Origin: a virus | Taxonomy: Duplodnaviria; Heunggongvirae; Uroviricota; Caudoviricetes | Length of the DNA: 33,447 nt | Direction: 5' to 3' (one strand) | Virus record (IMG/VR): IMGVR_UViG_2734482556_000012 | Part shown: positions 4,368-16,929 of the stretch, in pieces | Layout: the number at the start of each line of letters is the position of its first letter | Position numbering within the stretch: position 1 is the first letter of the stretch | Made by a program: the position numbers and the translations under genes | Notes under the pieces: generated by a model | Seen by the model: the letters and a program-made list of their open reading frames with translations, nothing else | Told to the model about the DNA's origin: nothing | Databases searched by the model: none

Positions 4368-4894
4368 TTGCGTAACTCCGATAACTCGTTAAAACGTTCC
4401 ATAAACATCCCGTAGGCATGGCCCGGTGCCAGTGGAATCACGTTGAACATCTCTGTTGCCGGGATGCCTTCCAGTACAGGCCAGAAAGAGCCATCATCAA
4501 GCCCGAGATCGCGGCGTTCGGTTGCCAGCATGATGAGATCGGCATATTTCACAGGTGTGCTCATAACCGGGGGTAACCCGTATTTCTCACGGATTACGGC
4601 ATCTATTTTTTCTTCCATCCGTTTATAGTCAGGAAGAAGGCGTTTCAGTGGAGCGGGGATGTCCTGGCAATATGCTTCTGTTGCATCATGCATTAACGCT
4701 TCAAAAGCAAATTCCTGCGGTACCAGCTGGCTGCAAAGCACCGCATGCTGGGCGACACTGTAGAAGTGTGAAAGATGTCCTGCAAAGCGACAGATATTTG
4801 AAAGGGAAACAGCGATATCGTTAATAACGATGTCATCTTTATTTATCTTGTCATAATAAAAATGCTTCCCGGAAAAAGTTTTAATAAATGACAT
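4358..4894 (-). CDS. HD-domain phosphohydrolase (YfdR-like 5'-deoxynucleotidase)
   Basis: H...HD metal motif (SVAQHAV...ALMHDATEAY); ATG 4894 with GGAG 6 nt upstream; 178 aa. Confidence 0.6.
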   Translation of the reverse strand: MSFIKTFSGKHFYYDKINKDDIVINDIAVSLSNICRFAGHLSHFYSVAQHAVLCSQLVPQEFAFEALMHDATEAYCQDIPAPLKRLLPDYKRMEEKIDAVIREKYGLPPVMSTPVKYADLIMLATERRDLGLDDGSFWPVLEGIPATEMFNVIPLAPGHAYGMFMERFNELSELRKCA

Positions 4895-7936: not shown

Positions 7937-8500
7937 ATGAGGCTAACCGTGGGTAAGCATCACTGGAAAGTAGAAAAACAGCCTGAGTGGTACGTGAAAG
8001 CTGTGAGAAAAACTATCGCGGCGTTGCCGGGGGGGTACGCTGAAGCTGCTGAGTGGCTGGATGTAACAGAGAACGCTTTATTCAATCGCCTTCGTGCAGA
8101 TGGCGATCAGATTTTCCCGCTGGGATGGGCAATGATTTTACAGCGCGCGGCTGGCACTCACTACATTGCGGATGCTGTCGCACAGTCTGCTGGTGGAGTG
8201 TTTGTATCGCTTCCTGAAATTGAGGAAGTAGAGAACGCCGATATAAACCAGCGCCTGCTGGAAGTCATCGAACAGATCGGGAGTTACTCAAAGCAGATTC
8301 GTTCGGCAATCGAAGATGGGGTAGTGGAGCCACACGAGCAGACAGCAATTAATGATGAGTTGTATCTGTCAATTTCGAAGCTCCAGGAGCATGCAGCACT
8401 GGTCTACAAAATCTTTTGCGCTCCAGAAAAGAGTGACGCCCGCGAGTGTGCAGCTCCGGGCGTCGTGGCGTTTTGTGTCTGTGGAGAAACTAACGCATGA
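7937..8500 (+). CDS. CII-like regulatory protein (HTH + coiled coil; YdaT/CII position)
   Basis: Position directly after cro; N-terminal HTH-like segment and C-terminal heptad region; start 7937 or GTG 7949. Confidence 0.35.
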   Translation: MRLTVGKHHWKVEKQPEWYVKAVRKTIAALPGGYAEAAEWLDVTENALFNRLRADGDQIFPLGWAMILQRAAGTHYIADAVAQSAGGVFVSLPEIEEVENADINQRLLEVIEQIGSYSKQIRSAIEDGVVEPHEQTAINDELYLSISKLQEHAALVYKIFCAPEKSDARECAAPGVVAFCVCGETNA

Positions 8501-9333
8501 ACAGTTTAACGGCAAATAACCGTTTGTCGCAACAGCTGGTGGTCAGTGTCGCTGAACACCTGTTGTTACGGCATGAATGCAGATTACCAAATCACCTGGC
8601 TGTAAGTAACCACAGAGAACTTTACCTGACTGTGGGGGGCGAGTTGTGCAGGAACTTAACCGCTGGTTTCGTGACGGAAGAGGGCTTTATGTCCATGTTA
8701 TTCGTTGGGAGCCAGAAACACAGCGCGTTATCTATCTTCGCAAAGACTACCCGCATGAGTGCTTTAGTCCTTTGTGGAAATTCAGGCGTGATTTTGTTGA
8801 GTGTGAAGGACCACCAGCACATTGATTCTGCCATTCCGGGACGTTACACTGTTCAGGCACCTTATAAAGCGGGTGCCGGGATTGGCGTCCTGGAAATGTT
8901 ATCGGCGATATATGACGCGCCAGCGTCTTTTTTATCGTTTGCGTCTGTGCACACCCAAATTATGGTGGGCTGGACGGGGGCACCGAAAGGTGCGCCGGTT
9001 TCCGATAACGCCGGTTACGCCAACCCCGTTCAGTTCACCACCAGCGAAATTGGCGTTTCCGGTGGTGAAGGTAATTCACTGTTATCGGAGGCTGCCATCA
9101 TGGCTACTGTCCCAGCCCTCACTCGTCTGAATGATGAAGACTTACATAAACTCAGTTATGTAACAACTGCACTACGTGCTCTGCGCAAGGTAACTCTTTC
9201 GGATCCGCAGGCGCATCAGGTTCTGGTAGAAACCCTTCTTAACTTGCAGGCTGAACGTATTCGTCTGGCGGATAAGGCTAATTTTCATATTCACCGTCTC
9301 CTGAATATCAGCGGAGGGCATCGTCATGCTTAA
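8497..9333 (+). CDS. hypothetical protein; reading frame of the 5' third uncertain
   Basis: Only long ORF here, ATGA-coupled at both ends; a second protein-like frame is open over 8610-8825. Confidence 0.35.
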   Translation: MNSLTANNRLSQQLVVSVAEHLLLRHECRLPNHLAVSNHRELYLTVGGELCRNLTAGFVTEEGFMSMLFVGSQKHSALSIFAKTTRMSALVLCGNSGVILLSVKDHQHIDSAIPGRYTVQAPYKAGAGIGVLEMLSAIYDAPASFLSFASVHTQIMVGWTGAPKGAPVSDNAGYANPVQFTTSEIGVSGGEGNSLLSEAAIMATVPALTRLNDEDLHKLSYVTTALRALRKVTLSDPQAHQVLVETLLNLQAERIRLADKANFHIHRLLNISGGHRHA

Positions 9334-10379: not shown

Positions 10380-10868
10380 ATGAGTCTTTTGAATGAAGTT
10401 CAGAAATTCATTGAAGCCCATCCGGGGTGTACTTCCGGAGACATTGCGGATGCTTTTGCAGGTTACTCACGGCAGCGCGTTCTGCAGTCAGCAAGCAAGT
10501 TACGTCAGAGTGGGCGTGTGGATCACCGTTGTGAAGGAGATACACGCAGACATTTCCCGCGCCTGACTGAGAGAGCGCAGGAACCGGAACCACAACCAGT
10601 TCGAGAAACCAGACCTGTGCGCAATTTCTATGTCGGCACTAACGATCCCCGTGTGATTTTGTGCCTGACCCGCCAGGCTGAAGAACTGGAGTCCAGGGGC
10701 TTATACCGTCGTGCTGCAACGGTGTGGATGGCGGCATTCCGAGAAAGCCACTCCCAGCCAGAACGAAACAATTTTCTGGCGCGTCGTGAGCAGTGCTTAC
10801 GGAAAAGCAGCAAGCGAGCTGTATCGGGTGATGAGTGGTATCTGTCAGGGAATTACGTGGGGGCTTAA
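10380..10868 (+). CDS. PerC-like transcriptional regulator with extra N-terminal domain
   Basis: C-terminal AEELESRGLYRRAATVWM...RREQCLRK resembles the PerC/Pch signature (recalled); ATG 10380 preferred over GTG 10374. Confidence 0.4.
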   Translation: MSLLNEVQKFIEAHPGCTSGDIADAFAGYSRQRVLQSASKLRQSGRVDHRCEGDTRRHFPRLTERAQEPEPQPVRETRPVRNFYVGTNDPRVILCLTRQAEELESRGLYRRAATVWMAAFRESHSQPERNNFLARREQCLRKSSKRAVSGDEWYLSGNYVGA

Positions 10869-11521
10869 TGAGTAATAAATATTGCCAGGAGCTGGTGGAA
10901 CTGCGGAACAAACCAGCCCATGAACTGAAGGAAGTGGGTGATCAGTGGTGCACGCCGGACAACATTTTCTGGGGAATTAACACCCTGTTTGGCCCGTTTG
11001 TTCTGGATCTGTTCACTGACGGTGATAACGCCAAATGTGCCGCGTATTACACGGCGGAAGACAACGCGCTGGCGCATGACTGGTCAGAACGCCTTGCGGG
11101 GCTTAAAGGTGCTGCCTTTGGTAATCCTCCATACAGCCGCGCCAGTCAACATGAGGGGCAATACATCACCGGCATGCGTTACATCATGAAACATGCCAGT
11201 GCCATGCGTGATAAGGGCGGGCGCTATGTTTTCCTGATCAAAGCTGCCACCAGCGAAGTGTGGTGGCCGGAAGATGCAGATCATATTGCTTTTATTCGCG
11301 GGCGTATTGGTTTTGAACTGCCTGTCTGGTTTATCCCGAAAGACGAGAAGCAGGTACCGACAGGAGCTTTTTTCGCTGGTGCTATTGCTGTTTTTGACAA
11401 GACCTGGAAGGGACCGGCAATCAGCTACATCGGGCGCGATGAACTTGAGGCATGTGGTGAGGCGTTTCTGGCGCAGGTTCGCCAGCAGGCGGAAAAACTG
11501 GTCAGGGAGATGGCGGCATGA
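10868..11521 (+). CDS. phage Dam-family DNA N6-adenine methyltransferase
   Basis: GNPPY catalytic motif with upstream WCTPDNIF...FVLDLFTDGDN block; ATG overlaps upstream stop (TAATG). Confidence 0.8.
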   Translation: MSNKYCQELVELRNKPAHELKEVGDQWCTPDNIFWGINTLFGPFVLDLFTDGDNAKCAAYYTAEDNALAHDWSERLAGLKGAAFGNPPYSRASQHEGQYITGMRYIMKHASAMRDKGGRYVFLIKAATSEVWWPEDADHIAFIRGRIGFELPVWFIPKDEKQVPTGAFFAGAIAVFDKTWKGPAISYIGRDELEACGEAFLAQVRQQAEKLVREMAA

Positions 11522-14056: not shown

Positions 14057-14073
14057 TTTTGTGGAGAAAGTTG

Positions 14074-14439
14074 ATGCGTGATATTCAAATGGTTCTTGAA
14101 CGTTGGGGGGCATGGGTGGCAAATAATCACGAGGATGTCACTTGGTCGTCTATTGCTGCAGGATTTAAAGGACTAATCCCTTCAAAAGTAAAATCCCGCC
14201 CGCAATGTTGTGACGATGACGCGATGATCATTTGTGGATGCATGGCTCGCCTGAAAAAGAACAACAGCGATTTGCACGATTTATTAGTGGATTATTATGT
14301 AGGTGGTATGACGTTTATGGCGCTTGCCCGTAAACATGGGCGTTCTGATTGCTGGGTTGGGCGTTTATTGCAAAAGGCTGAAGGTGTAGTTGATGGCATG
14401 TTAATGATGTTAGAAATTGAGCTAGAGATGGATCGTTAG
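14074..14439 (+). CDS. antitermination protein Q-like (small Q family with Cys cluster)
   Basis: [14 protein letters not shown]...[16 protein letters not shown] resembles small prophage Q proteins (recalled); GGAG RBS 7 nt before ATG 14074; sits before the lysis genes. Confidence 0.6.
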
Positions 14440-14970: not shown

Positions 14971-15093
14971 GTTTCTTATCCATTGTTAAGGGCATACCTA
15001 CACAATTATTTTTATTGGAGATGAATAATCAACCGTTTACAATCGTAAAAAATCAAATATGCTGTTAAGAGTGGTTACTTCGCCACACAACTT

Positions 15094-15118
15094 AAACCCG
15101 CCGCTGAGCGGTTTTTTT
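15094..15118 (+). terminator. rho-independent terminator-like hairpin
   Basis: Short GC stem (ACCCGC...GCGGT) followed by T7 at 15112-15118. Confidence 0.4.
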
Positions 15119-15216
15119 GTACCTGTAAACTTGGTGCAGTACAGTAAACACGCTGGTGGTCGTGAATACTGACTTTTTATCTTGCTGGCTTTTTAGACAA
15201 GAGTTATTGGTATGTC

Positions 15217-15444
15217 ATGTTAACCAGAAGGGAAAAAGACATGCTAAAACAGCAAGATATGACAGAAACCGCCGCCGCAGTCCTTCATTTCTTACCTGCT
15301 GACAAGTGGGTAACGCCACGCATGATGACGAGAACTACCGGAGTAAGCGAAGCCCGGTGCCAGTTAATACTGACTCAGTTAGTTCTGGCGGGTCTGGCGA
15401 AGGATAACGGTGGGTACGGGAATAAATTCAGACGCTGCCAGTAA
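15217..15444 (+). CDS. small wHTH protein, FaeA/PapI-like
   Basis: About 70 aa with AAVLHFL...TGVSEARCQLILTQLVLAGL, architecture like PapI/FaeA; alternative start ATG 15241 has a better RBS. Confidence 0.4.
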   Translation: MLTRREKDMLKQQDMTETAAAVLHFLPADKWVTPRMMTRTTGVSEARCQLILTQLVLAGLAKDNGGYGNKFRRCQ

Positions 15445-15594
15445 TGGCGGTTTCCTGCTGTGAAAATGGGCGGCTGGTGGGTGTTGGTAGCACCTGCCAG
15501 CCATTCGCTCATGCTTACTGGTCACAAGCGAACCACGGCCCACTGCTTTAGCGCAAAAGCAGAGTGAGCCTACCAGAGTTACGCTTACTGATCC

Positions 15595-16647
15595 ATGAAA
15601 AATACTGTAAAAATAAACAGTGTTGATTTAATCAACGCTGATTGCCTGCATTTTATTCAGTCCCTGCCTGATGATTCCATTGACCTGATTGTTACCGATC
15701 CGCCTTACTTCAAGGTGAAACCCAACGGTTGGGACAATCAGTGGAAAGGGGACGAAGATTACCTTAAGTGGCTGGACCACTGTCTGGCCCAGTTCTGGCG
15801 GGTGTTAAAACCTGCCGGAAGCCTTTACCTGTTCTGTGGGCATCGTCTGGCATCTGATATTGAGATCATGATGCGTGAACGTTTCAACGTGCTTAACCAT
15901 ATCATCTGGGCGAAGCCGTCCGGACGTTGGAATGGGTGTAATAAAGAAAGTCTGCGCGCATATTTTCCTGCCACAGAGCGCGTTCTGTTTGCTGAACATT
16001 ACCAGGGGCCATATCGCGGCAAAAGTGACGGCTATGCGGCAAAAGAAAGGGAACTCAAACAGCACATAATGGCACCGCTGATATCGTATTTCAGGGATGC
16101 TCGTGCCGAACTGGGTATAACGGCAAAACAAATTGCCGAAGCCACAGGTAAGAAAAATATGGTTTCCCACTGGTTTGGTGCCAGTCAGTGGCAGTTGCCG
16201 AATGAGGCTGACTATCGGAAGTTACAGGCACTGTTTTCCCGTATAGCGGCAGAGAAGTTTCAGGAACAACAACTGGAACAACCACACCACCAGCTGGTGG
16301 CATCTTATGATTCACTGAATCGCAAATATTCTGAATTGCTGGATGAGTTTAAATCTCTCCGGCGCTATTTCTCCGTATCAGTCTCCGTGCCTTATACCGA
16401 TGTCTGGATGCATAAACCCGTTCAGTTCTACCCGGGTAAACATCCGTGTGAGAAACCTGCGGATATGCTCCGGCAAATAATCAATGCCAGTAGTCGACCT
16501 GGTGATCTGGTTGCTGATTTTTTTATGGGATCCGGTTCCACAATAAAAGCAGCAATGGCGCTGGGGCGTCGGGCCTTAGGTGTTGAGCTTGAGTCAGAGC
16601 GGTTTAACCAGACAGTGAAAGAGATAAACGAGCTGGTGGGGAAATAA
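15595..16647 (+). CDS. beta-class DNA methyltransferase (N6A or N4C), orphan
   Basis: Motif IV VTDPPYF near the N-terminus and motif I FFMGSGST near the C-terminus, with a ~130-aa insert between; no adjacent restriction gene. Confidence 0.8.
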   Translation: MKNTVKINSVDLINADCLHFIQSLPDDSIDLIVTDPPYFKVKPNGWDNQWKGDEDYLKWLDHCLAQFWRVLKPAGSLYLFCGHRLASDIEIMMRERFNVLNHIIWAKPSGRWNGCNKESLRAYFPATERVLFAEHYQGPYRGKSDGYAAKERELKQHIMAPLISYFRDARAELGITAKQIAEATGKKNMVSHWFGASQWQLPNEADYRKLQALFSRIAAEKFQEQQLEQPHHQLVASYDSLNRKYSELLDEFKSLRRYFSVSVSVPYTDVWMHKPVQFYPGKHPCEKPADMLRQIINASSRPGDLVADFFMGSGSTIKAAMALGRRALGVELESERFNQTVKEINELVGK

Positions 16648-16653
16648 TCTGGT

Positions 16654-16676
16654 GGCCACGTAGGTGGCCTTTTTAT
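16654..16676 (+). terminator. rho-independent terminator after the MTase gene
   Basis: GGCCAC/GTGGCC stem with 4-nt loop, then CTTTTTATTT. Confidence 0.5.
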
Positions 16677-16713
16677 TTCCATTACACAGCACCCGCATCT
16701 GCGAGGTGGGGTT

Positions 16714-16929
16714 ATGAAATCCATGGATAAGTTAACAACGGGTGTCGCCTATGGCACCTCAGCAGGTAGTGCCGGGTACTGGTTTTTACAGTTGCTCGAT
16801 AAAGTCACGCCCTCACAGTGGGCGGCAATAGGTGTGCTGGGTAGTCTGGTATTTGGCTTGCTGACGTATCTGACAAACCTTTATTTCAAGATTAAAGAAG
16901 ATAAGCGTAAGGCTGCACGGGGAGAGTAA
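16714..16929 (+). CDS. S: class II holin, phage-21 S-type pinholin with dual start (MKSM)
   Basis: 71 aa, two TMDs, near-identical by eye to S21 ([17 protein letters not shown]...[10 protein letters not shown]...[18 protein letters not shown]); GAGGTGGGG RBS. Confidence 0.85.

Follow-up and report, generated by a model that had tools for sequence, protein, structure and literature searches.

How can a prophage carry the gene for a DNA methyltransferase of a toxic, indiscriminate type, and what do the two elements in front of that gene do? The question is raised by a unit in IMG/VR virus record IMGVR_UViG_2734482556_000012 (33,447 nucleotides (nt), the whole of which we call the window), a lambdoid prophage whose tested part is 100% identical to Escherichia coli APEC 102026. 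The unit comprises a small winged-helix gene, a spacer that contains a structured leader, and a methyltransferase gene. We read it as the cargo that opens a lambdoid late operon, where pR' and tR' are followed by the small winged-helix gene, the structured leader, the M.EcoGII-type methyltransferase, a terminator and then the lysis genes; in this reading the leader and the small protein probably control the enzyme. An earlier note on this DNA had instead seen a PapI/FaeA-like regulator paired with an orphan methyltransferase, suggesting either a methylation-based switch or an anti-restriction enzyme.

The methyltransferase and its relatives

The earlier note had described a 350-amino-acid (aa) methyltransferase of the beta class, and this description holds. 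The product of 15595–16647 carries DPPY at residues 35–38 (15697–15708) ahead of FxGSG (as FFMGSG) at residues 309–314 (16519–16536), which is the beta-class order, and a helical target-recognition insert of ~125 aa (~130 aa in the note), encoded at ~15997–16374, lies between the two motifs. It matches Pfam N6_N4_Mtase (PF01555; 2.2e-42, spanning residues 29–341) and also the structures of M.RsrI, M.MboIIA and CcrM. Along its full length it is identical to M.EcoGII at 281 of 349 residues (81%), with only two 1-residue gaps, a figure accurate to ~1% as the M.EcoGII sequence was machine-read from Supplementary Table S1 of PMC11551740. A weak HTH_3 match at residues 167–193 falls within the M.EcoGII bundle residues 160–237. 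Judged by its sequence, the enzyme is a member of the M.EcoGII family, that is, a new allele of a known enzyme type. M.EcoGII and M.EcoGI (REBASE; prophage of E. coli O104:H4 C227-11; PMC5778455) share with it the order DPPY...FxGSG, the central helical helix-turn-helix (HTH) insert and the prophage location; it diverges from M.EcoGII by ~19% and is nearer to the reconstructed-ancestor sequences of PMC11551740.

M.EcoGII has been assigned to a large prophage methyltransferase family. It methylates adenines irrespective of context, in double-stranded DNA, single-stranded DNA and RNA; its expression is deleterious, and its native lysogen does not express it (PMC5778455). Sequence specificity is largely lacking in M.EcoGII and in its reconstructed ancestors, and a four-helix HTH bundle has been modelled for the insert (PMC11551740). 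For homologues of M.EcoGI and M.EcoGII in Shiga toxin-producing E. coli O111, methylation was undetectable in culture (PMC6602927).

In the cargo slot between Q and S the enzyme is an orphan, as the note had it: no nuclease gene was found among its neighbours (Q, a lipoprotein-like gene, holin, DUF1327 and endolysin) or in eight annotated relatives. A complete restriction-modification system was considered and rejected, there being no cognate nuclease gene at the locus. The other suggestion of the note, an anti-restriction methyltransferase, fits the close resemblance to the non-specific M.EcoGII. The same layout of small gene, 150-nt leader and methyltransferase is found in a locus (L091) whose enzyme is 91% identical to M.EcoGII; at 4580–4829 of that locus the module is followed by tRNA-Ile, tRNA-Arg, tRNA-Arg, iraM and a NanS-p esterase gene, the layout of a Shiga toxin (Stx)-phage late region without stx. 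The window also holds a second, unrelated methyltransferase gene in its nin region (10835–11521, + strand), of the phage Dam family (Pfam PF05869, 4.7e-45; NCBIfam TIGR01712, 5.8e-76), so that the prophage has both a GATC-type and a presumably promiscuous adenine methyltransferase.

A structured leader RNA ahead of the methyltransferase

The best-conserved and least-explained part of the unit is the leader, which the earlier note underrated. It lies in the spacer between the two genes, whose length of exactly 150 nt (15445–15594) had been given correctly. Our species survey covered 80 species-level genomes with a relative of the enzyme 64–93% identical, and a profile of the spacer detects the leader upstream of the methyltransferase in 59 of these species, ~20 of them without the small gene. 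Mean nucleotide identity to the window is 82% for the leader core, compared with 72% for the methyltransferase coding sequence and 47% for its third-codon positions. Conservation and covariation in the aligned relatives show a predicted fold of ~112 nt, in which a three-way junction P0/P1/P2 is followed by a hairpin, P3. P0 (15467–71/15538–42; UGGGC/GCCCA, 5 bp) encloses P1, a hairpin of 12–14 bp (15472–85/15489–15502), and P2, which has 6 bp and a 17-nt loop (15504–09/15527–32); P3 (15543–49/15556–62) comes after the junction. Two hairpins had been noticed in the spacer before, and conservation together with compensatory changes places them far beyond chance.

Thirty-three distinct versions of P1 are present among the relatives and all of them fold, including some that share almost no stem sequence (e.g., GGCUGGUGGGUG, GGCGUACAUGAUG and GAUCGGAGAGCG). 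In a MAFFT alignment, which is blind to structure, two-sided changes occur in 16 of 30 pairs (7.4 in shuffles, with 0/500 reaching 16), and 83.6% of cells are paired, compared with 28–51% when the partners are slid by 1–3 columns. An alignment fitted to the model gives two-sided changes in 16 of 31 pairs (shuffles 7.2, 0/500 reaching 16), 71 cells with changes on both sides (18.1 +/- 3.7 in shuffles, 0/500), and 92.7% of cells paired (31–43% when slid by 1–3 columns). The MAFFT result is the more independent of the two, because a model-fitted alignment leans to its own structure. One P2 pair switches from C-G to A-U or U-A in 18–19 sequences. Furthermore, the plus strand folds better than the minus strand (z of -2.4 versus -1.4), and the G-U pairs point to an RNA with the plus-strand sequence; on the opposite strand each would become an A-C mismatch.

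The covariance model finds one full-length match in the window (15461–15573; 118.9 bits, E = 1.5e-29) and one match in each of 59 other loci, always on the plus strand and nearly always ending ~22 nt before the ATG. The exact P0-P1-P2 pattern occurs at 121 sites in viral contigs, and the methyltransferase follows every one of them (full length at 98, partial or disrupted at 5, cut by contig ends at the rest). Rfam gave no gathering-score match at the leader, and none overlapping 15445–15594 even at E <= 10; ARAGORN detected no tRNA or tRNA-like element in it; and the papers on the AgvB/AsxR and Pas small RNAs place no small RNA beside a methyltransferase. A hidden leader peptide (a 33-codon open reading frame (ORF), MGGWWV..., from 15467) was tried and rejected, since indels of 1 nt and 2 nt among the relatives break its frame and thereby exclude a coding explanation of the leader. 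The idea that the leader is an operator used exclusively by the small protein was also dropped; loci without the small gene conserve the leader to the same degree. As for the duplicated GCTTACTG motif to which the note drew attention, the two copies are there (15513 and 15583), but at least two copies turn up in 20 of 100 shuffles of the window, and the first lies in a loop that varies among relatives. Being neither beyond chance nor conserved, the duplication does not appear meaningful, and we rejected it as a regulatory motif.

The methyltransferase AUG lacks a canonical Shine-Dalgarno (SD) sequence (CCAGAGUUACGCUUACUGAUCC-AUG). Abutting it is a nearly invariant UGAUC[C/U] that is complementary to GGUCA in the P2 loop (15520–24), with pairing in 96% of cells, although the pairing is unproven because only one-sided changes occur. 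UGAUC is also complementary to GGAUCA, which lies shortly before the anti-Shine-Dalgarno in 16S rRNA, so that the P2 loop could compete with the ribosome for the start site. A conformational switch between leader pairings is possible. A more speculative reading, which we think less likely than not, is that the leader belongs to an undescribed class of cis-regulatory RNA for M.EcoGII-type methyltransferases, in which the three-way junction gates the AUG; it might sense the winged-helix protein (in the manner of Com and mom, discussed below), the methyltransferase, or S-adenosylmethionine/S-adenosylhomocysteine.

At its 5' edge the leader meets a mosaic junction that separates loci having the small gene from loci lacking it, and the latter have a strong terminator at the position of the hairpin that, in the window, covers the stop codon of the small gene (15435–15462). 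In the Xenorhabdus and Photorhabdus loci (L145–L172) the winged-helix gene and its upstream motif are kept, and the leader, 76–101 nt long, retains only a variable P1-like hairpin. Another contig (L237; IMG/VR contig 2698536677_000006) has two copies of the leader ~3 kb apart, at least one of which is followed only by a methyltransferase fragment, and may hold a tandem or rearranged module.

The small winged-helix gene and its linkage to the methyltransferase

The small ORF noted at 15217–15444 is real, but its start had been placed too far upstream. The ATG at 15217 is not conserved (relatives read GTATGTCAcg) and the site lies in a conserved non-coding block; ATG 15241 is preceded at 8 nt by an AAGGG SD sequence, and the phage Ayreon record annotates this start. 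The true protein thus has 67 aa (15241–15444). Its helix-3 segment, RCQL[IL]LTQ..AGL, is invariant as protein in 53 relatives with 2–6 synonymous codons per position, indicating purifying selection on the protein and a real gene. The winged-helix assignment made in the note was correct as well. [quoted passage not shown] As modelled, the protein is a genuine minimal winged helix.

The closest, if weak, matches are thus the C-terminal winged helix of DprA (PF17782) and TrmB/MarR, and DprA (3maj) and TrmBL2 are among the Foldseek matches; the small protein differs from these in standing alone, at 63–72 aa within the family. The window protein itself stays below every Pfam cut-off (best MarR_2, E of 0.045 for the 67-aa form and 0.058 for the 75-aa ORF), no NCBIfam model matches it, and sequence and profile searches of the PDB returned only noise (best E 0.02, the winged-helix domain of an O-methyltransferase). 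The family is narrow, with 92 clusters in a HMMER scan of 1.84 billion representatives, essentially all of them small stand-alone proteins, and the named homologues found in a word-indexed search all come from Enterobacterales.

The likeness to PapI/FaeA did not survive. None of the 20 family members matched Pfam FaeA (PF04703) at E <= 1, whereas PapI itself, whose sequence we confirmed against PDB 2HTJ and used as a positive control, scored 5.5e-32. Aligned by hhalign, the profile of the small protein and PapI gave a probability of 23%, with 18% identity over 45 columns, and PapI was absent from the top structural matches. What the two share is size (~70 aa) and the generic winged-helix fold. 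PapI/FaeA works together with Lrp at a fimbrial promoter that has paired Dam (GATC) sites; here the setting is a phage late operon and the partner enzyme is of a non-specific type. One GATC is read in the leader, at 15590–15593, adjoining the methyltransferase ATG.

Four phages, cdtI, mEp460, Ayreon and SfV (where the genes are orf47/orf48), carry DNA 96–99% identical to that spanning the small ORF and the methyltransferase gene; for Stx2c phages the figure is 90%. The first four have the same flanking terminators as the module described here, and their records annotate no function for the small gene or the leader. Matches to the module are present in 1604 of 5426 complete E. coli genomes, covering at least 80% of its length in 1130. 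In SfV and Ayreon the Q gene is unrelated and the shared DNA sets in precisely at the terminator that follows it, which marks the module as a portable late-operon cassette. Among 80 viral contigs with an identical small ORF, a full methyltransferase gene lies directly downstream in 74; four of the others are cut by the contig end and two have a partial or disrupted gene. Layout and spacing are kept in divergent pairs (identity of small protein/enzyme: 53%/82% in Salmonella, 58%/55% in Plesiomonas, 64%/58% in a metagenomic contig). In the species survey, the small gene is immediately upstream of the methyltransferase in 56 of the 80 species, at a distance of 147–154 nt in nearly all loci of Enterobacteriaceae, Erwiniaceae and Yersiniaceae and of 76–101 nt in Xenorhabdus and Photorhabdus; it is absent in 24, where unrelated genes or just a terminator precede the leader. 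The three examined cases of a small gene without an intact methyltransferase are all decayed loci, one a deletion (L088) and two carrying pseudogenes (L086 and L090, an Erwinia and a Salmonella locus). These comparisons support an evolutionary link between the two genes. Alleles recombine freely: in SfV the methyltransferase is 98% identical but the small protein beside it only 51%.

Two of the surveyed arrangements deserve separate description. In the deletion locus, from an O157-type prophage (L088, 2026–2370), the winged-helix gene is intact and falls in a cluster of 1869 member sequences, the leader is broken off inside P1, and the methyltransferase is gone, with sequence leading to a NanS-p esterase gene in its place. 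Two species-level loci without the winged-helix gene (L102 and L105, ~2558–2797) have, directly before the terminator and leader, a gene for a 79-aa, zinc-ribbon-like protein that contains three CxxC pairs. It might be a non-homologous replacement of the winged-helix gene, a point of interest since Com of Mu is a zinc-finger protein.

Upstream of the small gene, the blocks CTTGCTG-N12-AGAGTTA-N3-GTATGTCA are invariant across 25 loci, Xenorhabdus and Photorhabdus included, and travel with the gene: the pair CTTG[AC]T and AGAGTT, searched as regular expressions, is absent from 20 loci that lack it, with only four isolated matches to one or the other. A perfect 10-nt inverted repeat (TATCTTGCTG / CAGCAAGATA) joins 15178–87 to 15250–59 and brackets the SD sequence and start codon of the small gene. 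Its first arm is the invariant non-coding motif and its second consists of conserved Q-Q-D codons, and the pairing is weaker in Xenorhabdus and Photorhabdus. From these patterns, the 15178–15217 motif could be a weak promoter (TTGCTG-17-TAYNTG), an operator, or one arm of a stem around the start of the small gene. The invariance of helix 3 suggests a fixed nucleic-acid target. Most likely, the small protein is an accessory nucleic-acid-binding factor that tunes expression of the operon and is dispensable in some lineages.

Late-operon position and models of control

The unit fills the first position of the late operon, the slot held by stx in Shiga-toxin phages (Table 1). In many Stx1 and Stx2 phages, and in phage 434, the DNA where Q ends or directly beyond it is ~80% identical to the segment 15035–15123, and we therefore read this segment as pR', a short terminated leader and tR'. 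This pR'-tR' segment would yield a terminated RNA of ~50 nt, analogous to the short late-promoter transcripts of Stx phages, of which StxS is an example. Homology with SfV, Ayreon, mEp460 and cdtI begins at the tR'-like terminator. The bracketing of the unit by terminators, reported in the earlier note, was confirmed: both are hairpins followed by T-runs. A phage moron has its own terminator and its own promoter active in the lysogen. The unit ends in a terminator, the only promoter-like spacing in front of the small gene is weak though conserved, and homologues of M.EcoGII are silent in lysogens (PMC6602927).

Table 1. Features of the late-operon region of the window, from the antiterminator gene to the lysis genes.
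Feature	Coordinates	Strand	Evidence or remarks
Antiterminator Q (933W/21-like)	14059..14439, likely ATG 14074	+	Pfam Phage_antitermQ PF06530, 2.1e-51; phrog_79
Lipoprotein-like cargo gene, 148 aa	14524..14970	-	phrog_3152, 1.3e-104; weak LPAM_1 signal
pR'-like late promoter, TTTACA-16-TATGCT	15036..15063	+	Promoter scan
tR'-like intrinsic terminator	15095..15119 (hairpin and T-run 15100-15119)	+	Terminator scan; also annotated in SfV and Ayreon records
Conserved motif upstream of small gene	15178..15217 (CTTGCTG 15181-87, AGAGTTA 15200-06, GTATGTCA 15210-17)	+	Invariant blocks, 25 loci
Small stand-alone winged-helix protein, 67 aa	15241..15444 (helix 3 encoded at 15349-15387)	+	phrog_331
Hairpin over small-gene stop codon (CUGCCA-GUAA-UGGCGG), then U-rich tract	15435..15462	+	Read from sequence
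Structured leader RNA core	15461..15573	+	Covariance model, covariation
Methyltransferase start region, UGAUCC-AUG	15589..15597	+	Sequence
M.EcoGII-family beta-class N6-adenine methyltransferase, 350 aa	15595..16647	+	Pfam N6_N4_Mtase; identity to M.EcoGII
Intrinsic terminator between methyltransferase and holin	16654..16679	+	Terminator scan; also annotated in SfV and Ayreon records
Holin S (phage 21 type), first lysis gene	16714..16929	+	Pfam Phage_holin_2_1, 2e-35
DUF1327, endolysin, spanin	Downstream of holin		Neighbour annotation

The lipoprotein-like gene, which has its own promoter-like site (14989–14960, 10/12 matches), is common to 2 of 75 matching phage records, most phages with the downstream module being without it, and it appears to be an insertion between Q and pR'. 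Farther upstream, Rfam gives gathering-score matches on the + strand to isrK (8857–8933, 63.7 bits) and to C4 antisense RNA (8958–9045, 82.8 bits), inside or adjoining the ORF of an Ash-family regulator (8497–9333); together they resemble, here in a lambdoid early region, a c4-like antisense immunity element of the P1/P7 type.

From this layout we suggest the following course of events. In a lysogen, transcripts from pR' would end at tR' and at the next hairpin (15435–15462), and the enzyme would not be made, a shut-off that is necessary because, to judge from the literature on M.EcoGII, an enzyme of this type methylates adenines in any context and is toxic. Lying directly after pR' and tR', the methyltransferase gene should be transcribed only after antitermination by Q. 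Only Q-modified RNA polymerase, after induction, would read through both terminators, which would account for the silence in lysogens. The late enzyme would hypermethylate replicating phage DNA before packaging and would thereby protect progeny DNA simultaneously against many adenine-sensitive restriction systems of Types I, II and III. The leader would act in cis to set the level of translation from the SD-less AUG, and one plausible route is the pairing of the P2-loop GGUCA with the UGAUC abutting that AUG. The 67-aa protein would tune expression of the operon through one of two candidate targets, the motif before its own gene or the leader RNA; this is the weakest step of the model. It may be a dedicated regulator, but 24 of the 80 species keep the methyltransferase, and most of them also the leader, without the small gene.

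Several observations weigh against this model. P0 and the pairing of the P2 loop with UGAUC are nearly invariant, so that covariation can neither confirm nor exclude either of them, and alternative pairings exist (invariant GGCCCA with GUGAGCC, AUGGGC with GCUCAU). The leader of Xenorhabdus and Photorhabdus is shorter and is missed by the covariance model. The absence of the small gene from 24 of the 80 species means that it is not essential for the enzyme or the leader, the allele combination in SfV speaks against tight protein-protein co-adaptation, and one allelic form of the small protein has a net charge of about -1 (counted from the sequences), which is unusual for a DNA binder. Methylation of adenines in any context and silence in lysogens are properties of M.EcoGII relatives that the present allele, at 81% identity, would be expected to share. 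The anti-restriction role of M.EcoGII-type enzymes is itself an assumption of the literature rather than a demonstration.

The small protein could instead be a transcription factor that binds CTTGCTG...AGAGTTA...GTATGTCA, which would then be a weak internal promoter, to regulate its own gene and time transcription of the methyltransferase. Such a role would resemble that of the C proteins of restriction-modification systems, likewise encoded by a small HTH gene just upstream of a modification or restriction gene and presumed to control timing. We regard this as possible but doubtful. Every lineage with the small gene, Xenorhabdus and Photorhabdus among them, has the motif as well, the paired regular expressions are unmatched where the gene is absent, the TTGCTG-17-TAYNTG spacing suits sigma-70, and an invariant helix 3 is what a fixed operator would call for. 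However, both hexamers are poor (3/6 each) and the site is missing from the output of the promoter scan; no operator-type inverted or direct repeat was found, and an RNA stem around the start is another way to read the motif; and an internal promoter active in lysogens would clash with a silent enzyme. C proteins, moreover, are Xre-type HTH dimers that bind C-boxes and control a nuclease, whereas here there is a winged helix and no nuclease, and no C-box-like operator repeat was found at 15000–15600 apart from RNA-type stems.

The closest functional analogy to the module is com-mom of phage Mu, where a small regulatory gene lies just upstream of a toxic late enzyme that modifies adenines broadly for anti-restriction, and where translation of the enzyme depends on a folded mRNA leader at its start site. 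This is an analogy and not homology, as there is no sequence relationship. By extension, the small protein would bind the leader RNA and switch translation of the toxic enzyme, as Com does for mom. The architecture of small gene, folded leader and toxic late adenine-modifying enzyme is the same, the methyltransferase AUG without an SD sequence may be occluded, and the structural neighbours of the small protein include winged helices that bind RNA (SelB, Zalpha). We nevertheless consider such a switch unlikely: the leader is just as well conserved in loci without the small gene, Xenorhabdus and Photorhabdus keep the protein while most of the leader differs, and the structural resemblance is of a generic kind. 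Com is a zinc-finger protein and Mom is not a SAM-dependent methyltransferase, whereas here the small protein is a winged helix without a Com-type zinc finger, and its gene is absent in 30% of species.

It is improbable that the small protein deals with the consequences of methylation, by binding DNA rich in N6-methyladenine (m6A) or shielding it from Type IV nucleases, or that it is mere hitch-hiking cargo. Some prokaryotic winged helices read m6A (PMC11037411), and in the cases examined the protein occurs only with the methyltransferase or its remnants and is dispensable in 24 of 80 species. DpnI-type winged helices, however, lie outside the top matches, and structural and sequence support for an m6A reader was sought and none found; no sequence motif points that way, and the idea, a pure conjecture, is retained as a low-probability rival.

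We think it very improbable that the leader acts as DNA, whether as an operator, a recombination junction or a replication or packaging signal. A 12–14-bp inverted repeat, P1, and the mosaic junction at the leader's 5' edge would suit such a role, but the stems stay paired through very different sequences, the strand asymmetry of G-U pairs and of folding energy described above points to RNA, and position and orientation relative to the ATG are fixed. Finally, the switch favoured by the earlier note, in which a PapI-like co-regulator and an orphan methyltransferase set up heritable, site-specific phase variation in the lysogen, is largely refuted and hardly credible, for despite the shared fold and the one GATC next to the methyltransferase ATG, neither the profile comparisons nor the top structural matches given above tie the small protein to FaeA or PapI, M.EcoGII-type enzymes are non-specific and silent in lysogens (PMC5778455, PMC6602927), and the unit sits behind a late terminator.

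The enzyme family is already known, and the module is repeatedly present in GenBank as 'hypothetical protein + DNA methylase'; of the structured leader and its family-restricted winged-helix partner we found no description in Rfam or in the literature searched. M.EcoGII is a standard reagent for chromatin and RNA footprinting, and its relatives occur in up to 30% of complete E. coli genomes, often beside Shiga-toxin genes. The native regulation of this toxic and indiscriminate enzyme is now framed by a predicted strict dependence on Q antitermination, a folded leader at an SD-less start and a winged-helix partner confined to the module, and the analogy to PapI and phase variation, tempting but wrong, is removed. 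If the leader is indeed a riboregulator, it would constitute a new RNA family with a clear biological rationale and a possible tool for controlling the expression of toxic genes, and its gating of the start codon would explain why the enzyme is silent in its native hosts.

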